DNA of 64,000 nucleotides from Escherichia coli. Its GTDB lineage: Bacteria > Pseudomonadota > Gammaproteobacteria > Enterobacterales > Enterobacteriaceae. Below, piece by piece: positions 21,364-39,800 of the stretch. The position numbers were made by a program, and so were the translations under genes. Numbering within the stretch: the stretch's first letter is position 1; each line of letters opens with the position of its first letter. The notes under the pieces are model-generated. The model made no database searches and was not told the DNA's origin. It was given only the letters and a program-made list of their open reading frames with translations. The stretch is from assembly GCF_048403405.1 (NCBI RefSeq), contig NZ_CP183129.1; one strand, 5' to 3'.

Positions 21364-22731
21364 TCATTCATCATCCTTGCGGTTGATAAGAATTTCTGCC
21401 TCTTTTACTACCACCTTATTACGCCCGGTCTCTTTCGCCTCGTAAAGTGCGTTATCAGCCAGTTGATAGATCTCCTTAGGGTTTAACTCATTTTTCTGCG
21501 TTACAACAGCGCCAATACTAATCGTCACTTTTTGTGGTATGGCGTATTCAGGATTATCACCAGTTAAACGCTCAACATTTTCCCGAATCCTTTCCGCTAA
21601 AGCTTTCGCACGTTCAGTATCGATGTCCGTCAGCAAGACGCCAAACTCTTCGCCGCCGACGCGCGCAAAAAGGTCATCTGGCCGTATGCTTTTCCCAATT
21701 ATACTCACCACTGTTTTTATCACCTGATCGCCAACCGGATGCCCCCAGGTGTCGTTGACTTTTTTGAAGTGGTCGATATCCATAATCATGACGCAATAAG
21801 GCGTTTTTTTGGCCGATGCTGATTGAACTGTCAGTTCATTAAAAAAATAATTTCTGTTAAATATATTGGTTAAGGAATCGCGATGTGCAATGTCCTTTGT
21901 TACTCGTAGCGCACTGAATATATGGCACATAAATATTACCATAACGGTTAACTTACTGACTACTTCAATAGTGCGACTAATATACCAAATGGACACGCTA
22001 TACCTGCTCATAAATAAAAGAGAGACATTGTACAGTACGGCACAAAAAGCAATCACCGTCACTCCATTCCAGATATCACAGCGTAAACCATTAAAGTATA
22101 GATTAACTGAAAGCAAGGTTAACCACATGAAAATCATTATGGTAACATATGATGTTTTCCAAACCACCTGATCATTTTCATTGGTTAACTCGGCAATGTG
22201 TAAATTGTAGCTCTCATAATGACTAGAAAGTATGTGAGCAACTATCGGCCCCCCAACAACAAAAAACAAACTTATGCACAAAGTCATTTTTTTGGAAAAT
22301 AAATTGCGCTGTTTTGTGTTTTCACTAACTTTATTCACCAATGCCAGAAATATTAATATGCACAAACTCATCTGACGAAACAAATAATAGATTGCAATGT
22401 CATTTTGAACAACACTGCTTGTCAAACGCCCCTCAATAATTTGCTGAATGATAATGACGGTTTTAACAAAGTAAATCAAACAACTCAGAAAAGCCAAACT
22501 AAGTATACAGTTTGAAAATTGCCTACGGTCATAAATGAAATACAACTGCATAAAAATAAATGCAACAGTATCGATAAAAAATAAAGCAATCATTACCATC
22601 AGATAGGTTGATCGTGGAACAACTTCCTCAACGCCTGGCTGATTAAACCAACTATTCACCAAAACCAAAGCAAGCCCAAACAATAAGCTCACTAATACAG
22701 TACTACTAATTCTCAAATAGTCTTTTTCCAT
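21364..22731 (-). CDS. dgcT: Diguanylate cyclase DgcT (YcdT): N-terminal membrane sensor domain plus GGDEF domain
   Basis: GGEEF active-site motif (RVGGEEFGVLL); N-terminal multi-TMS region; start taken at MEKDYLRISS; divergent from pgaA. Confidence 0.88.
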   Translation of the reverse strand: MEKDYLRISSTVLVSLLFGLALVLVNSWFNQPGVEEVVPRSTYLMVMIALFFIDTVAFIFMQLYFIYDRRQFSNCILSLAFLSCLIYFVKTVIIIQQIIEGRLTSSVVQNDIAIYYLFRQMSLCILIFLALVNKVSENTKQRNLFSKKMTLCISLFFVVGGPIVAHILSSHYESYNLHIAELTNENDQVVWKTSYVTIMIFMWLTLLSVNLYFNGLRCDIWNGVTVIAFCAVLYNVSLLFMSRYSVSIWYISRTIEVVSKLTVMVIFMCHIFSALRVTKDIAHRDSLTNIFNRNYFFNELTVQSASAKKTPYCVMIMDIDHFKKVNDTWGHPVGDQVIKTVVSIIGKSIRPDDLFARVGGEEFGVLLTDIDTERAKALAERIRENVERLTGDNPEYAIPQKVTISIGAVVTQKNELNPKEIYQLADNALYEAKETGRNKVVVKEAEILINRKDDE

Positions 22732-29554: not shown

Positions 29555-30619
29555 TTAACTGTATGCATGTAGCGTACGTTGGCAAAGTGCCGAACGTACG
29601 CAATCCTCTTTACCGAATCGGACGATCCCGACCATTTCATCTTCTTCGAAACGTTCCAGCGCGTCACTTAATCCGGAGCGCACGCCGCGAGGCAAATCGC
29701 ATTGCGTGATATCACCGTTGACGATAACCGTCACGTTCTCCCCGAGGCGGGTTAAAAACATTTTCATTTGCGCGGCAGTCACATTCTGCGCCTCGTCAAG
29801 AATGACGACTGCATTTTCAAAGGTACGTCCACGCATATAGGCGAACGGCGCAATTTCCACCTTCCCTATTTCCGGTCGCAGGCAGTACTGCATAAAGGAA
29901 GCCCCTAAGCGCCGGACCAGCACGTCGTAGACCGGACGAAAATAGGGAGCAAACTTTTCTGCGATATCTCCAGGTAAGAAGCCAAGATCTTCATCGGCTT
30001 GCAGAACTGGACGGGTGACGATAATCCTGTCGACATCCTTATGTATCAGGGCCTCTGCCGCTTTTGCTGCGCTGATCCAGGTTTTTCCGCACCCGGCTTC
30101 GCCCGTGGCGAATATCAGCTGCTTACTCTCAATAGCCTTCAGATAGTGCAATTGCGCTTCATTTCGCGCGAGGATGGGCGAGGTATCGCGACTGTCGCGG
30201 GCCATACCAATGGCTTCTACGCCGCTCATCTGCACAAGCGAGGTGACCGATTCTTCTTCACGCTGCTTATGGCTGCGCGAATCCCGTCTCAGCACACGTT
30301 TTGCCTCGCGACGAGCTTTGATCACTGCTTTTTGTCTTCCCATGGAGAGCACCTTGAGTTGTTTGTATTCATCACACGCGCCGTTGGCAGCGCGATTATG
30401 CGCACGAACATCAGAGGGTTGGCTTCCTTGTAAGCCATAGTTTGCTTTTGGATAAAATGCCGAAAAACGGCTACGCGCACCGTTTACGGCGTCGGTAACA
30501 CATGAAAAGAAAGGATGAGGTTGAAAATACAAAGTGACGAGATGACTACCGGAGGAGAAATCTCCGCGAGTGGTGGCGCGCTGATTATCTAAAACATGTC
30601 CAGTACAGGACGTTACCAT
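29555..30619 (-). CDS. phoH: PhoH, phosphate-starvation-inducible ATPase (long form), 354 aa
   Basis: Walker A GEAGCGKT, PhoH-like C-terminal domain; 354 aa. Confidence 0.92.
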   Translation of the reverse strand: MVTSCTGHVLDNQRATTRGDFSSGSHLVTLYFQPHPFFSCVTDAVNGARSRFSAFYPKANYGLQGSQPSDVRAHNRAANGACDEYKQLKVLSMGRQKAVIKARREAKRVLRRDSRSHKQREEESVTSLVQMSGVEAIGMARDSRDTSPILARNEAQLHYLKAIESKQLIFATGEAGCGKTWISAAKAAEALIHKDVDRIIVTRPVLQADEDLGFLPGDIAEKFAPYFRPVYDVLVRRLGASFMQYCLRPEIGKVEIAPFAYMRGRTFENAVVILDEAQNVTAAQMKMFLTRLGENVTVIVNGDITQCDLPRGVRSGLSDALERFEEDEMVGIVRFGKEDCVRSALCQRTLHAYS

Positions 30620-30768
30620 CCGCGATCTCCATAGTGACTGACTATCACTGCCGGGAACTTCCGCTGCTACTTAATAATTACAACAGAACTCGCATTCATT
30701 GCAACAATATATTCACTTATATTTAACGATAAACACCCATTTCGGTGACATTAGTTTCTACTGGAAAG

Positions 30769-30786
30769 ATGACAGAGTGATGACAG
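30769..30786 (-). promoter_or_regulatory. Pho box (PhoB binding site) upstream of phoH
   Basis: Minus-strand sequence CTGTCAT-CACT-CTGTCAT: two 7-bp direct repeats with 4-bp spacer, the PhoB consensus architecture. Confidence 0.75.
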
Positions 30787-30837
30787 AGATGAAAAAAGCT
30801 GTGTGCTTTCAGCAGGATTCGCAGTACTGGTAAAAGC

Positions 30838-30875
30838 TTGCCGGATGCGGCGTGAACGCCTTACCCGACCTACAA
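30838..30875. repeat. REP element
   Basis: gccggatgcggcgtgaacgccttacccgacctac matches E. coli REP consensus. Confidence 0.6.
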
Positions 30876-30941
30876 GTGATTAATAATTTGTGCACCAAAC
30901 TCATGCCCGATAAACCTGCGCATCGGGCATATTTGCGTCGT

Positions 30942-32213
30942 TCAAACCTGTAATAGCGCCCTTCCCAGATAATCGTTCGTGTCCTTCACCCCCGGCAGCG
31001 CAAAAAAATAACCGCCGCCGATAGGTTTAACGTATTCCTCCAGCGCTTCGCCATTGAGCCTTTTTTGTACTGTCAGGAAGCCTTTTTCCAGATCGTGTTG
31101 GTAACAGACAAACAATAGCCCCATATCCAGTTGTCCGGAGTTGGTGACGCCCAACGAATAACTGTAGCCACGACGCAGCATCAGGCTGGACTCACTCTCT
31201 GGCGTGCGGGGATTCGCCAGCCGGATATGGCTGTCCAGCGCAATCACCTTCCCCTCCGGATCGCTGGCGTAATCGGGAACATCATGCTCATGCTGCATTC
31301 CCAGCGGCGCACCGGTTTGTTTGTCGCGACCAAAAATCGTCTGCTGTTCTTTCAGTGGCGTTCTGTCCCAAAACTCCACCCGAAACTGAATCAACCGCAC
31401 CGCCTGGTAGCTGCCGCCGATTGTCCACGCAGGCTCCTGCTGATCTGCCGTCACCCACACCACTTGTTGCATCAACTTATCATTCTGGCTATCGGGATTG
31501 GCAGTGCCGTCTTTGAAACCCAGCAAATTAATCGGCGTCTCTTTGCCTTTACTACGCGCTGCATGATCGGAAATAAACCCTTCCCGCTTCCAGCGCACGC
31601 TGAGCAAATCCGGCGTGTGTTTGATGATATCGCGCAGCGCATGGATCACCGTGTCCTGGGTGTTGGCGCAAATTTGTAGCAACACATCACCATGACATAA
31701 CGCCGCATCCAGCGAGTCGTTGGGGAAACGCGTCATTTTCTGCAACTTTTTCGGCATCTGCGGTGTAAGGCCAAACCGCTCATCAAACAATGAGTGGCCC
31801 ACCGATAACGTTATGGTGAGATTATCGGACGCAATGTAGCCGCCAAGAATGCCGGAATCGAGTGGAGGCAGGCGCGGATTTGGCGTTTCTGGTGCCGCTC
31901 CGCCCTGAGTCAGAAAAGCAAAACGCTGAGTCAACAAGCGAAACAACCGTTCAAGATCGGCTTTATCGCTGGCAAGCACATCAAACGCCACCAGCATCAT
32001 TGCGGCCTGTTGTGGCGTCAGGACCCCTGCCTGATGCTCACCATAAAACGGCTGTTTCTCATTGCGTGCATCCGGTGAAAGCGTTCCCGGTGCACTTTGC
32101 GTTTTTTGTGCATGAGCGACCGGACAACTTCCCGCCAGCGCCAGCGCACCAATCCCTTTCAGTAAACGTCGGCGTGACGGTTCATTCACGCCGTTTTCAT
32201 CTTCATACTGCAT
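30942..32213 (-). CDS. efeB: Dye-decolorizing (DyP) haem peroxidase EfeB (YcdB), Tat-secreted, 423 aa
   Basis: Twin-arginine signal [17 protein letters not shown]; 423 aa. Confidence 0.93.
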
Positions 32214-32218
32214 AACAC

Positions 32219-33346
32219 TTAATCCAGTCCCAGCACACCGCGAAGTTGCGCCAGATCTTCCGCCAGCGCAGTAATCGGCCCTTTCAGCGCGTTACGGTCG
32301 GCATCGGTCAATTTGTCGTAGGTTTCAAAACCGTCTTTAGTACGGTATTTCGCCAGAATGGTATCGACCTTTTTGAAGTTGGCATCGACTTTTGCCAGCA
32401 GTTCCGGGTTGGCTTTTTGTAGTTGTGGACGCAGCAGATCGACAATTTTCTGCGAGCCTTCAACGTTAGCCTGGAAATCCCACAGATCGGTGTGGCTGTA
32501 GCGATCTTCTTCACCGCTGATTTTGCTGGCTGCCACTTCCTCAATCAGTCCGGCTGCACCGCCGACCACTTTTGAAGGTGGGAAAGCCAGTTCACTGATG
32601 CGTTTTTGCAAATCGACCACATCGGTATAAAGCTGGTCAGCGTACTTATCCATCCCTTTAGTGGTGTTATCGCCAAACAATGCTTTTTCCAGACGGTGGA
32701 AACCGGTGAATTTTGGATCGGCGGCTTTTTGCTCGTAATCATCTTCACGGGCGTCAATGCTACCATCCAGATCGGAGAACAGTTCAGCAATCGGTTCAAT
32801 GCGCTCATAGTGCTGGCGCGTCGGCGCATACAGTGCTTTCGCTTTTTCGATATCGCCTGCTTTAATCGCGTCGGTAAAGGCTTTGGTGTCGGTCACCAGC
32901 TGTGTGGTTTCCGCCATGACATACGCTTTATATGCAGTAATTGCACCACCAAGACTTAACAGCGCATCACTTTGCGCCGCATCCGCCGTTGCCTCACCTT
33001 TGACGATCAACTTCCCTTTCGGGTTAGTCAGCAGACCGCAGGTCATATCGTATTCGCCAGGCTGTAAATTCGCCGTCATTTTCTGGCTAAAACCAGGGGC
33101 GATATTTTCCCGCTCTTCCACCACCATCACGCCTTTGAGGATCTCCCACTCCAGCGCCTTCTGGCTGTGGTTCTGAATAATGAACTGTGTTTTCCCGGCG
33201 TTAACCGTAATGGTCATCGGTTCGCACTGTTTATCTGTCACAGTGACTTTGACCTGCGGAATATCAGCGGCGTTAGCCATAAAAGCAGAAGAGAACAGCG
33301 CAGCCACGCTAAACTGCAATGCGTTACGGCGGAAGTTAATGGTCAT
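32219..33346 (-). CDS. efeO: Periplasmic iron-binding protein EfeO (YcdO), 375 aa
   Basis: 375-aa ORF with signal peptide; cupredoxin + M75 peptidase-like domains by recall. Confidence 0.93.
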
Positions 33347-33403
33347 GACGAGACTATCCCTTTAAAGTATGTTGTAACTAAGCAAGAGTTTGCGTCGTAT
33401 TTG

Positions 33404-34234
33404 TTACGCGGAGCGAGACGCTGTCGCCCCTGCGCGTGGTGGCAGAGCAAATGCCACCAGCGCCGGGATGAGATAAATAAACCAGACGGCGACTTCGCTG
33501 ACACTTGGCGCTTCCTGATAGCCAAAAATCCCTTCCATCAGCGTGCCAAACAGCGAGTGAGTTGAGAGCACCGCACTCATATCGAAGGCGATTTCCTGAA
33601 AGTGGTTCCACAATCCGGCTTCATGAAATGCGCGAATGGCACCAGCCGCCAGCCCTGCGGCGACGAAGAGAATAAACAGGCTGGTCCATTTAAAAAATGC
33701 ACCAAGATTGAGGCGAATACCGCCCCAGTAGAGCAGGAAGCCGAGCACCACGGCTGTAGCAAGACCGAGCATTGCACCCAGCGGCGGCCAGATCCCGACA
33801 TCTTGTTGAAATGCCGCCAGCAGGAAAAAGACCGACTCCAGCCCTTCCCTTGCAACGGCAAAAAAGACCATCATCACCAGCGCCCAGCCATGATGATTTC
33901 CACGCTGCAATGCGCTATCGACTGCCTGCTCCAGTTGTACTTTGACGTTGCGCGACACTTTGCGCATCCAGAAAACCATCCAGGTAAGGATCACCACGGC
34001 GATCACCGCCACGATACCTTCAAACAGTTCCTGTTCTTTTTGCGGAAATTCGCCGGTGGTTTCGTTAATGAAGATACCCAAGCCCAGGCACAACGCAGCG
34101 GCAAGCAACACGCCAATCCACATCACACCAATCCATCGGCCTCGCTGGGTACGCTTAAGATAGCTGGCAATCAAACTGACAATCAGCGCGGCTTCAAGTC
34201 CTTCGCGCAACATAATGAGAAATGGAACAAACAT
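33404..34234 (-). CDS. efeU: Ferrous iron permease EfeU (YcdN), intact, ~276 aa
   Basis: Uninterrupted ORF with two REGLE (RExxE) iron-binding motifs; start taken at MFVPFLIMLREGLE (track ORF begins 3 codons upstream). Confidence 0.9.
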   Translation of the reverse strand: MFVPFLIMLREGLEAALIVSLIASYLKRTQRGRWIGVMWIGVLLAAALCLGLGIFINETTGEFPQKEQELFEGIVAVIAVVILTWMVFWMRKVSRNVKVQLEQAVDSALQRGNHHGWALVMMVFFAVAREGLESVFFLLAAFQQDVGIWPPLGAMLGLATAVVLGFLLYWGGIRLNLGAFFKWTSLFILFVAAGLAAGAIRAFHEAGLWNHFQEIAFDMSAVLSTHSLFGTLMEGIFGYQEAPSVSEVAVWFIYLIPALVAFALPPRAGATASRSA

Positions 34235-34283
34235 GCCACCCACCCTTAAACGTTTTTCTGAGTCAATCTATGCAAAGAAAAGT

Positions 34284-34302
34284 AAATCGCAGTGATAGCG
34301 AT
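34284..34302 (-). promoter_or_regulatory. Candidate Fur box upstream of efeU
   Basis: gatagcgattatcattac resembles Fur consensus GATAATGATAATCATTATC; ~50 bp upstream of efeU start. Confidence 0.55.
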
Positions 34303-34887
34303 TATCATTACGGCAAAGAAAAATACAAGCGGAATGTTTATAAAATGATGTTGGAATGTAAACAAAGAGAGGTAATGCCAGGGGATATAAACAATTATTC
34401 CAGGTACAAAGATGGGATTGTTTACAACGAGCCATGTGTTCTTGCCAGATGCCGCGTAAACGCCTTATCCAGCCGACAAAACTGTCCAGACTCAATGCAT
34501 CAGAGCTTCCATGTAAAACTGATAAGCGGGTGTATCAAGCAATTTCGTCCATCCGCGATTATCAAATCTAACTTTTTGCCCGGAACATAATAACAGCTCG
34601 GGTGTTGGTGGCGTCAAAGTCGCTGAAGCGTTCCCCGAAGGCCGGGGCAGCCCACATGGATGTGGGCTGAGGGCGCGTCTTACAGGACATTACCTCGCGC
34701 CCGACCCGGTAGCCGAAGGGGATAAGCTGAAGGTACCGCGCAGCGGCGATTTTGTTCGCCAGAGCCCGGGGTGCAGGGGGTGGCGGCGATTGGCCGCCCC
34801 CTGCACCATTCAATTTATATGGCGAGGCACATTAAGGGAGCGCAACCCGCTGCTGAAGCCAAACAAAACCGCCGCAGGCTAAGTCCC

Positions 34888-36396
<1,509 letters not shown>

Positions 36397-36818
36397 CTAA
36401 AGTCTCCAAAAAATTATTATCGGCAATGTCGAAACTTGCCGTTATATCTGCCACCGGAACGGGGTAACAGAGTTTATGTTTTACCAGGGCGACCGTATCC
36501 TGCCGGAAGCGCCGGTTATTCACAATCGATTTAACACACCATTTACATTAAATTTTAGTGCTCAGCGACACTATTTTTCATCAGGTTGCACTCTCTCACA
36601 TTTTTTGCGGTTGCACCTTTCAAAAATGTTAACTGCCGCAGAGAAAAAGTCTGAGTTATTTTTTTAATCCCTGTCATATCGATTTCTTTTATTAACATTT
36701 CATTCATTTTTAAGCTTGCTACGCAGGTCACATTTAACATGGTTGCACAAAGTTGCAACATCATGGATATTTCACGATAACGTTAAGTTGCACCTTTCAG
36801 AACAACAGGAGTAATGGC
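36397..36818. promoter_or_regulatory. put control region between divergent putP and putA with GTTGCA PutA operator motifs
   Basis: Repeated GTTGCA motifs read at ~36586, ~36612, ~36739-36752 (inverted pair gttgcacaaagttgcaac) and ~36784. Confidence 0.75.
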
Positions 36819-39800
36819 ATGGGAACCACCACCATGGGGGTTAAGCTGGACGACGCGACGCGTGAGCGTATTAAGTCTGCCGCGACACGTATCGATCGCA
36901 CGCCACACTGGTTAATTAAGCAGGCGATTTTTTCTTATCTTGAACAACTGGAAAACAGCGATACTCTTCCGGAGCTACCTGCGCTGCTTTCTGGCGCTGC
37001 CAATGAGAGCGATGAAGCACCGACTCCGGCAGAGGAACCACACCAGCCTTTCCTCGACTTTGCCGAGCAAATTTTGCCCCAGTCGGTTTCCCGCGCCGCG
37101 ATCACCGCTGCCTATCGCCGTCCGGAAACCGAAGCGGTTTCGATGCTGCTGGAACAAGCCCGCCTGCCGCAGCCAGTTGCTGAACAGGCGCATAAACTGG
37201 CATATCAACTGGCCGATAAACTGCGTAATCAAAAAAATGCCAGTGGTCGCGCAGGTATGGTCCAGGGGTTATTGCAGGAGTTTTCGCTGTCATCGCAGGA
37301 AGGCGTGGCGCTGATGTGTCTGGCAGAAGCGTTGTTGCGTATTCCCGACAAAGCCACCCGTGATGCGTTAATTCGCGACAAAATCAGCAACGGTAACTGG
37401 CAGTCACACATTGGTCGTAGCCCGTCGTTGTTTGTTAATGCCGCCACCTGGGGGCTGCTGTTTACTGGCAAACTGGTTTCCACCCATAACGAAGCCAGCC
37501 TCTCCCGCTCGCTGAACCGCATTATCGGTAAGAGCGGTGAACCGCTGATCCGCAAAGGTGTGGATATGGCGATGCGCCTGATGGGCGAGCAGTTCGTCAC
37601 TGGCGAAACCATCGCGGAAGCGTTAGCCAATGCCCGCAAGCTGGAAGAGAAAGGTTTCCGTTACTCCTACGATATGCTGGGCGAAGCCGCGCTGACCGCC
37701 GCAGATGCACAGGCGTATATGGTTTCCTATCAACAGGCGATTCACGCTATTGGTAAAGCGTCCAATGGTCGTGGCATCTATGAAGGTCCGGGCATTTCAA
37801 TAAAGCTGTCGGCGCTGCATCCGCGTTACAGCCGCGCCCAGTATGACCGGGTAATGGAAGAGCTTTACCCACGTCTGAAATCACTCACCCTGCTGGCGCG
37901 TCAGTACGATATTGGTATTAACATCGATGCCGAAGAGGCCGATCGTCTGGAGATCTCCCTCGATCTGCTGGAAAAACTCTGTTTCGAGCCGGAACTGGCA
38001 GGCTGGAACGGCATCGGTTTTGTTATTCAGGCTTATCAAAAACGCTGTCCGTTGGTGATTGATTATCTGATTGATCTCGCCACCCGCAGCCGTCGCCGTC
38101 TGATGATTCGCCTGGTGAAAGGCGCGTACTGGGATAGTGAAATCAAGCGTGCACAGATGGACGGCCTTGAAGGTTATCCGGTTTATACCCGCAAGGTGTA
38201 TACCGACGTTTCATATCTCGCCTGTGCGAAAAAGCTGCTGGCGGTGCCGAATCTAATCTACCCGCAGTTCGCAACGCATAACGCCCATACGCTGGCGGCA
38301 ATTTATCAACTGGCGGGTCAGAACTACTACCCGGGTCAGTACGAGTTCCAGTGCCTGCACGGTATGGGCGAGCCACTGTATGAGCAGGTCACCGGGAAAG
38401 TTGCCGACGGCAAACTTAACCGTCCGTGTCGTATTTATGCTCCTGTCGGTACACATGAAACGCTGCTGGCGTATCTGGTGCGTCGCCTGCTGGAAAACGG
38501 TGCTAACACCTCGTTTGTTAACCGTATTGCTGACACCTCTTTGCCACTGGATGAACTGGTCGCCGATCCGGTCACTGCTGTAGAAAAACTGGCGCAACAG
38601 GAAGGGCAAACTGGATTACCGCATCCGAAAATTCCCCTGCCGCGCGATCTTTACGGTCACGGGCGCGACAACTCGGCAGGGCTGGATCTCGCTAACGAAC
38701 ACCGTCTGGCCTCGCTCTCTTCTGCCCTGCTCAATAGTGCACTGCAAAAATGGCAGGCCTTGCCAATGCTGGAACAACCGGTCACGGCTGGTGAGATGTC
38801 GCCCGTTATTAACCCGGCAGAGCCGAAAGATATTGTGGGCTATGTGCGCGAAGCCACGCCGAGTGAAGTAGAACAGGCGCTGGAAAGTGCGGTTAATAAC
38901 GCACCAATCTGGTTTGCCACGCCTCCGGCTGAACGCGCGGCAATTTTGCATCGCGCTGCCGTGCTGATGGAAAGCCAGATGCAGCAACTGATTGGTATTC
39001 TGGTGCGTGAGGCCGGAAAAACCTTCAGTAACGCCATTGCCGAAGTGCGCGAAGCGGTCGATTTTCTCCACTACTACGCCGGACAGGTGCGGGATGATTT
39101 CGCTAACGAAACCCACCGTCCATTAGGGCCTGTGGTATGTATCAGTCCGTGGAACTTCCCGCTGGCGATTTTCACCGGGCAGATCGCCGCCGCACTGGCG
39201 GCAGGTAACAGCGTGCTGGCAAAACCGGCAGAACAAACGCCGCTGATTGCCGCGCAAGGGATCGCAATTTTGCTGGAAGCGGGTGTACCACCAGGCGTGG
39301 TGCAATTGCTGCCAGGTCAGGGGGAAACCGTGGGCGCGCAACTGACGGGTGATGATCGCGTGCGCGGGGTGATGTTTACCGGTTCAACCGAAGTCGCTAC
39401 GTTACTGCAACGCAATATCGCCAGCCGCCTGGACGCTCAGGGTCGCCCTATTCCGCTCATCGCGGAAACCGGCGGCATGAACGCGATGATTGTCGATTCT
39501 TCAGCACTGACCGAACAAGTCGTAATAGATGTGCTGGCCTCGGCGTTCGACAGTGCGGGTCAGCGTTGTTCGGCACTGCGCGTGCTGTGCCTGCAAGATG
39601 AGATTGCCGACCACACGTTGAAAATGCTGCGCGGCGCAATGGCCGAATGCCGGATGGGTAATCCGGGTCGCCTGACCACCGATATCGGTCCGGTGATTGA
39701 TAGCGAAGCGAAAGCCAATATTGAGCGTCATATTCAGACTATGCGTAGTAAAGGCCGTCCGGTGTTCCAGGCGGTGCGGGAAAACAGTGAAGATGCCCGT

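Follow-up and report, generated by a model that had tools for sequence, protein, structure and literature searches.

An Intact efeUOB Operon, Ordinary for Non-K-12 Escherichia coli

Organization of the efeUOB Locus and Features of EfeU

The Escherichia coli DNA analyzed here (a continuous stretch of 64 kb, referred to throughout as the window) contains the genes efeU, efeO, and efeB, arranged in that order and transcribed in the same direction. The gap between efeU and efeO is of 57 nt and that between efeO and efeB of 5 nt, a spacing shared with the reference strains. The coding features of the locus are the following:

33404..34234, minus strand: efeU, uninterrupted, 276 codons and a stop codon, read from an ATG
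34193..34207, minus strand: first REGLE (RExxE) motif, EfeU residues 10–14, inside hydrophobic segment 1 (residues 5–23)
33836..33850, minus strand: second REGLE (RExxE) motif, EfeU residues 129–133, inside hydrophobic segment 4 (residues 119–137)
34243..34247, minus strand: Shine-Dalgarno-like AAGGG located 8 nt before the efeU ATG, read from the sequence, putative in its role
32219..33346, minus strand: efeO, intact, 375 aa (open reading frame listing and family profiles)
30942..32213, minus strand: efeB, intact, 423 aa, coding for a DyP-type peroxidase/deferrochelatase (open reading frame listing and family profiles)

In the open reading frame listing, the longest frame for efeU (33404..34243, minus strand) starts at an in-frame GTG at 34243 and codes for 279 aa. 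The ATG at 34234 is the start chosen by RefSeq in the near-identical strains 4621 and TUM14771 (WP_000497942.1). A previous reading of the sequence alone (the sequence-only reading) had described an intact frame of about 276–279 codons that retained both RExxE motifs, and this description was borne out: the frame is uninterrupted for 276 codons from the ATG and for 279 from the GTG, and both copies of REGLE are in place.

The deduced protein was compared with family profiles. EfeU matched Pfam FTR1 with an E value of 1.8e-89 and 300 bits (cut-off 25.3), residues 1–275 aligning with positions 1–283 of the 284-position profile. It also scored 331 bits against the NCBIfam EfeU equivalog NF041756 (cut-off 255) and 352 bits against TIGR00145, the EfeU/Ftr1 subfamily (cut-off 304). 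The family match is far beyond chance. A Kyte-Doolittle scan, which considers hydropathy only and is not a topology predictor, gave seven hydrophobic segments. A PDB search returned no sequence relative of EfeU with a solved structure.

The K-12 Frameshift in efeU and Its Distribution

The efeU gene of K-12 had been described in the sequence-only reading as split by a frameshift, and an alignment with K-12 had been proposed there as a check. This alignment placed the lesion at the following position of the window:

34128..34129, minus strand: GG dinucleotide opening codon 36 (GGT, Gly36), the K-12 frameshift site, from the alignment with MG1655

Pairwise global alignment showed that MG1655 lacks one G of this dinucleotide, a 1-nt deletion that truncates the K-12 product to 36 residues, at the point where the second membrane segment begins. 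The MG1655 gene is annotated as frameshifted. Neither a frameshift nor a premature stop was found in the efeU gene of the window, and the remaining eight nucleotide differences between both genes are all at third positions and synonymous.

The frequency of both alleles was determined in complete E. coli genomes, using as denominator the 5417 (out of 5426) that were matched by a 1.1-kb query covering the efeU region. The K-12 deletion allele, identified by exact match to an 80-mer, is present in 368 of these 5417 genomes, and the corresponding 81-mer of the window, containing the GG dinucleotide, occurs exactly in 3587 complete genomes. The remaining matches that were sampled span 81 nt in the record, and therefore they carry substitutions and not the K-12 deletion. 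Consequently, approximately 93% of sequenced E. coli genomes are free of the K-12 deletion at the mutation site, as is the window.

The genomes carrying the deletion allele were further inspected. The 60 best matches of the K-12 allele belong to genomes of 4.46–4.79 Mb, and the genomes among them for which a strain name or source is given are all K-12 laboratory derivatives. Among the matches listed, 62 of 63 distinct genomes with the deletion allele look like K-12 laboratory derivatives. The idea that wild E. coli commonly carry the K-12 frameshift allele was rejected, with one clear exception among the matches listed.

This exception is TUM12357 (NZ_CP134370.1, locus 1436–2265), a 5.03-Mb isolate from imported chicken meat, in which efeU is annotated as frameshifted and carries the K-12 allele. 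Around efeU it shows a single difference from MG1655 in 3080 nt. Thus, at least one genome deposited as that of a non-laboratory isolate has the allele.

The strain is clearly not K-12, as had also been stated in the sequence-only reading. Identity to K-12 over the 1.1-kb region is 98.8%. Independently of efeU, positions 22000–46000 of the window show two mismatches to the blood isolate 4621, and the same segment is listed at 100.0% identity to other clinical isolates, namely MS 69-1, TUM1226, GN02461, and TUM14771. No complete genome in the collection matched the 1.1-kb query at 100%. E. coli normally has an intact efeU, which is therefore a weak strain marker and not noteworthy: because only 368 of 5417 genomes carry the deletion allele, the intact gene is ordinary, and it rules out K-12 and says little else.

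The efeO and efeB Genes

EfeO scored 773 bits against its NCBIfam model and contains cupredoxin and M75/imelysin domains, with HRLE at residue 217 and an N-terminal hydrophobic leader that resembles a signal peptide. Among solved structures, it matches 7WGU, that of E. coli EfeO. EfeB scored 611 bits against its NCBIfam model and aligns over residues 33–423 with the YcdB structures 2Y4F and 3O72. Its Tat motif reads SRRRLLK, and the haem site retains D235, H329, and R347.

Divergence is uneven along the operon. Relative to K-12, nucleotide divergence is 0.96% in efeU, 2.5% in efeO, and 4.9% in efeB, and a similar trend is seen in the comparison with O157:H7. Thus, efeB diverges by 4–5% from K-12, O157, and ABU 83972, and efeU by approximately 1% from K-12 and O157. 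EfeB differs from the K-12 protein at 11 positions and from the O157 protein also at 11, and at eight positions it carries a residue absent from all four comparison strains (K-12, O157:H7, ABU 83972, and N96). The comparison of efeB with K-12 gave 47 synonymous and 11 nonsynonymous codons. Substitutions in the operon are mostly synonymous, which indicates purifying selection. The EfeU, EfeO, and EfeB proteins are identical in TUM14771, and strain 4621 carries the same three RefSeq accessions. As a separate observation, the operon (30942–34234) resembles a mosaic produced by recombination, its efeB allele being divergent.

The efeU Upstream Region

Two putative regulatory sites were located between efeU and the preceding gene putP:

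34294..34312, minus strand: Fur box CGTAATGATAATCGCTATC, a predicted site matching 15 of 19 consensus positions
34272..34286, plus strand: CpxR-box-like GCAAA-N5-GTAAA, 9 of 10 positions, a putative site between the Fur box and the start codon

No site with three or fewer mismatches to the Fur consensus was found; the box upstream of efeU has four and was recovered by a custom scan. It is the only site with four or fewer mismatches in the 64-kb window, 0.17 being expected from shuffled sequences. The sequence-only reading had placed a Fur-box-like sequence about 50 bp upstream of the gene. The box does exist, and that distance is correct only if counted from the GTG (51–69 nt), since from the ATG it lies 60–78 nt upstream; moreover, the interval given for the locus ended at 34302 and so cut in half a box that reaches 34312. 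The 88 nt running from the Fur box to the start codon are invariant in the window, K-12, O157:H7, ABU 83972, and the divergent strain N96, and beyond them the sequence is not alignable between lineages. Both efeU and efeO have been assigned to the Fur-2 iModulon (PMC10164565).

CpxR has been reported to repress efeU at high pH (PMC3852070, PMC9600279; RegulonDB list in PMC7657598), and the position of the CpxR-like box would fit this repression. Matches of this quality (9 of 10 positions) occur in the window at chance frequency, with six found and 4.0 expected. A consensus scan detected no sigma-70 consensus promoter upstream of efeU. The hexamer GATAAT at 34301..34306, inside the Fur box, is a possible -10 element, and TTGTAT-16-GATAAT, which overlaps the Fur box and was read by eye, is a weak candidate for a promoter arrangement.

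The putP–efeU Spacer and Other Features of the Window

The spacer between putP and efeU varies greatly from lineage to lineage, its length ranging from 219 nt in ABU 83972 and N96 to approximately 2.7 kb in O157:H7; K-12 has 542 nt and the window 653 nt. In the window it contains a TRIP1-type repeat (about 34590–34847) beginning approximately 41 nt past the putP stop codon. Relative to K-12, the window has 123 extra bases here (34652–34774) and lacks 11. The K-12 copy, TRIP1b, is reported to have lost 125 bp internally (PMC10888264), and so the strain seems to carry the undeleted form of TRIP1. A long G+C-rich hairpin is found at 34770–34807. In O157:H7, the 1344-nt open reading frame in the spacer (locus 610–1953) is annotated as a hypothetical protein and lies on the opposite strand.

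An Rfam scan of 30500–37000 revealed no regulatory RNA, only sub-threshold matches to naRNA4. The match at 30836–30870, beyond the end of efeB, scored 33 bits, and that at 34438–34474, ahead of efeU, 27 bits, against a gathering score of 59.5; both are probably REP elements.

At position 34393 the window has an A and strain 4621 a G, and at this alignment column K-12, O157:H7, ABU 83972, and N96 carry the other base as well. Strain 4621 also differs from the window at 44963, again by a single base, and from 44964 to 58900 there are no mismatches. Within the latter segment, 50234–51494 is annotated by RefSeq in strain 4621 as a frameshifted pseudogene of the YccE family, and the window has an open reading frame of 395 aa at 50234..51421. 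Leftward of about 11772 the window falls out of ungapped register with strain 4621, which implies an indel between the two there, near ymdA/csgC according to the annotation of 4621. In the divergent promoter region between putP and putA, an open reading frame of 69 aa (36555–36764, minus strand) corresponds to the RefSeq hypothetical protein WP_000979516.1, found in several strains including K-12.

Proposed Function of EfeUOB

The locus is very probably an ordinary intact efeUOB operon of non-K-12 E. coli that, judging by homology, would provide working Fe2+ uptake. Iron transport by EfeU is inferred from its 100% identity to the EfeU protein of O157:H7 together with the literature. The prediction that the system is functional and acid-inducible in this strain is a reasonable one, based on Grosse 2006 and Cao 2007 as these are reported in PMC2808357, PMC7549933, and PMC3852070: EfeU is the same protein as in O157:H7, neither efeO nor efeB is interrupted, and K-12 and O157 have the same 88 nt upstream of the start. 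The frameshift in K-12, the functional versions in O157:H7 and other non-K-12 strains, and the regulation by Fur, CpxAR, and acid were all published in 2006–2007, and hence the finding is already known.

According to the proposed mechanism, EfeU would act as an inner-membrane iron permease of the Ftr1 type with seven segments, in which the REGLE motifs of segments 1 and 4 would correspond to the iron-translocation motifs of the family. EfeO would be a periplasmic cupredoxin/M75 protein and EfeB a Tat-exported haem DyP peroxidase. By homology, Fe2+ in the periplasm would be bound and oxidised by EfeO and EfeB and then passed through EfeU. Transcription would be repressed in two ways: by Fe2+-Fur at the predicted box, 60–78 nt ahead of the start codon, and, at high pH, by CpxR. 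Low iron and acid would therefore favour expression. It has been reported that the K-12 frameshift inactivates the system and that an in-frame operon leads to better growth under iron restriction (PMC7549933, PMC2808357). An efeOB mutant of ExPEC showed no virulence defect (PMC7549933), which suggests that the physiological weight of the system may be small.

The nature of the transported ion admits a second reading of the same intact genes, in which EfeUOB would not be a simple Fe2+ importer. EfeB and EfeO would oxidise periplasmic Fe2+ and EfeU would carry Fe3+, following the logic of yeast Fet3p-Ftr1p, or else EfeB would act mainly as a haem deferrochelatase. The cupredoxin domain of EfeO is in line with this possibility, as is the label of deferrochelatase given by both PDB and NCBIfam to EfeB, a DyP peroxidase. 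A review (PMC3852070) reports two proposals, one that the iron carried by EfeU may be Fe3+ produced by EfeO, and the other that EfeB helps to extract iron from haem in K-12, where efeU is broken; the cargo of EfeU (Fe2+ versus Fe3+) and the weight of the deferrochelatase activity of EfeB are presented there as debated. We regard this reading as possible and clearly less probable than not. Transport of Fe3+ would in any case refine the mechanism without contradicting it, since uptake overall would still begin with Fe2+.

It is unlikely that the reading frames are intact and the system is nonetheless effectively non-functional or silent, as could result from the EfeB substitutions, from the private SNP upstream of the operon, or from defects in Tat, Fur, or CpxAR encoded elsewhere. 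The eight EfeB residues absent from the four comparison strains and the divergence of efeB (4–5%, versus approximately 1% for efeU) would be compatible with such a loss, as would the SNP at 34393, 159 nt upstream of the ATG. However, the Tat motif and D235, H329, and R347 of EfeB are kept, the predominance of synonymous substitutions points to purifying selection, and the same three proteins are encoded by TUM14771 and represented by the same accessions in strain 4621. The SNP, for its part, is not within the invariant 88 nt, and the intergenic sequence around it is poorly conserved. For the related question of whether the EfeB allele of this lineage or its upstream spacer alters the activity or expression of the system with respect to the characterised O157:H7 version, such an effect is predicted to be very improbable. 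Finally, it is hardly credible that the G missing from K-12 is an error of sequencing or assembly in the window, hiding a frameshifted efeU, since beyond the general possibility of such errors nothing speaks for it, and against it are the exact occurrence of the 81-mer with GG in 3587 complete genomes, the shortness of the G run (just two bases), and the full-length family match encoded by the restored frame.

With efeUOB taken as a working Fe2+ uptake system, the strain should have one more ferrous uptake route than K-12 laboratory strains, pertinent to acidic, iron-poor, and aerobic conditions. This additional route would be the normal condition in E. coli, K-12 being the exception at efeU, and it has little importance beyond correct annotation.

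Comparison With Known Systems

The closest functional reference is the operon of E. coli O157:H7, which was reported by Cao et al. 2007, as cited in PMC4746246 and PMC7549933, to be functional. EfeU (YcdN) of O157:H7 strain 3384, which is not the exact strain of Cao et al., has 276 aa and is 100% identical to the protein of the window, both corresponding to WP_000497942.1. The two operons also agree in gene order, in intergenic spacing, and in the 88 nt preceding the ATG. Differences are found in EfeO (3 residues), in EfeB (11 residues), and in the putP–efeU spacer, which in O157:H7 extends over approximately 2.7 kb and contains the additional 1344-nt open reading frame, versus 653 nt in the window.

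In K-12 MG1655, the efeU pseudogene (efeU_1/efeU_2, ycdN) occupies the same locus between putP and efeO, with 99% nucleotide identity and an identical Fur box. Unlike the efeU gene of the window, it has one G fewer at codon 36 and yields a product of 36 aa. Upstream of it, the TRIP1b repeat of K-12 has an internal deletion of 123 bp in comparison with the window.

A more distant relative is yeast Ftr1p (PF03239 FTR1), with which EfeU shares the full-length family match, two RExxE motifs, and approximately seven membrane segments. Both permeases differ in their partners: Ftr1p pairs with the multicopper oxidase Fet3p, whereas EfeU pairs with EfeO, a cupredoxin/M75 protein, and with EfeB, a haem DyP peroxidase.
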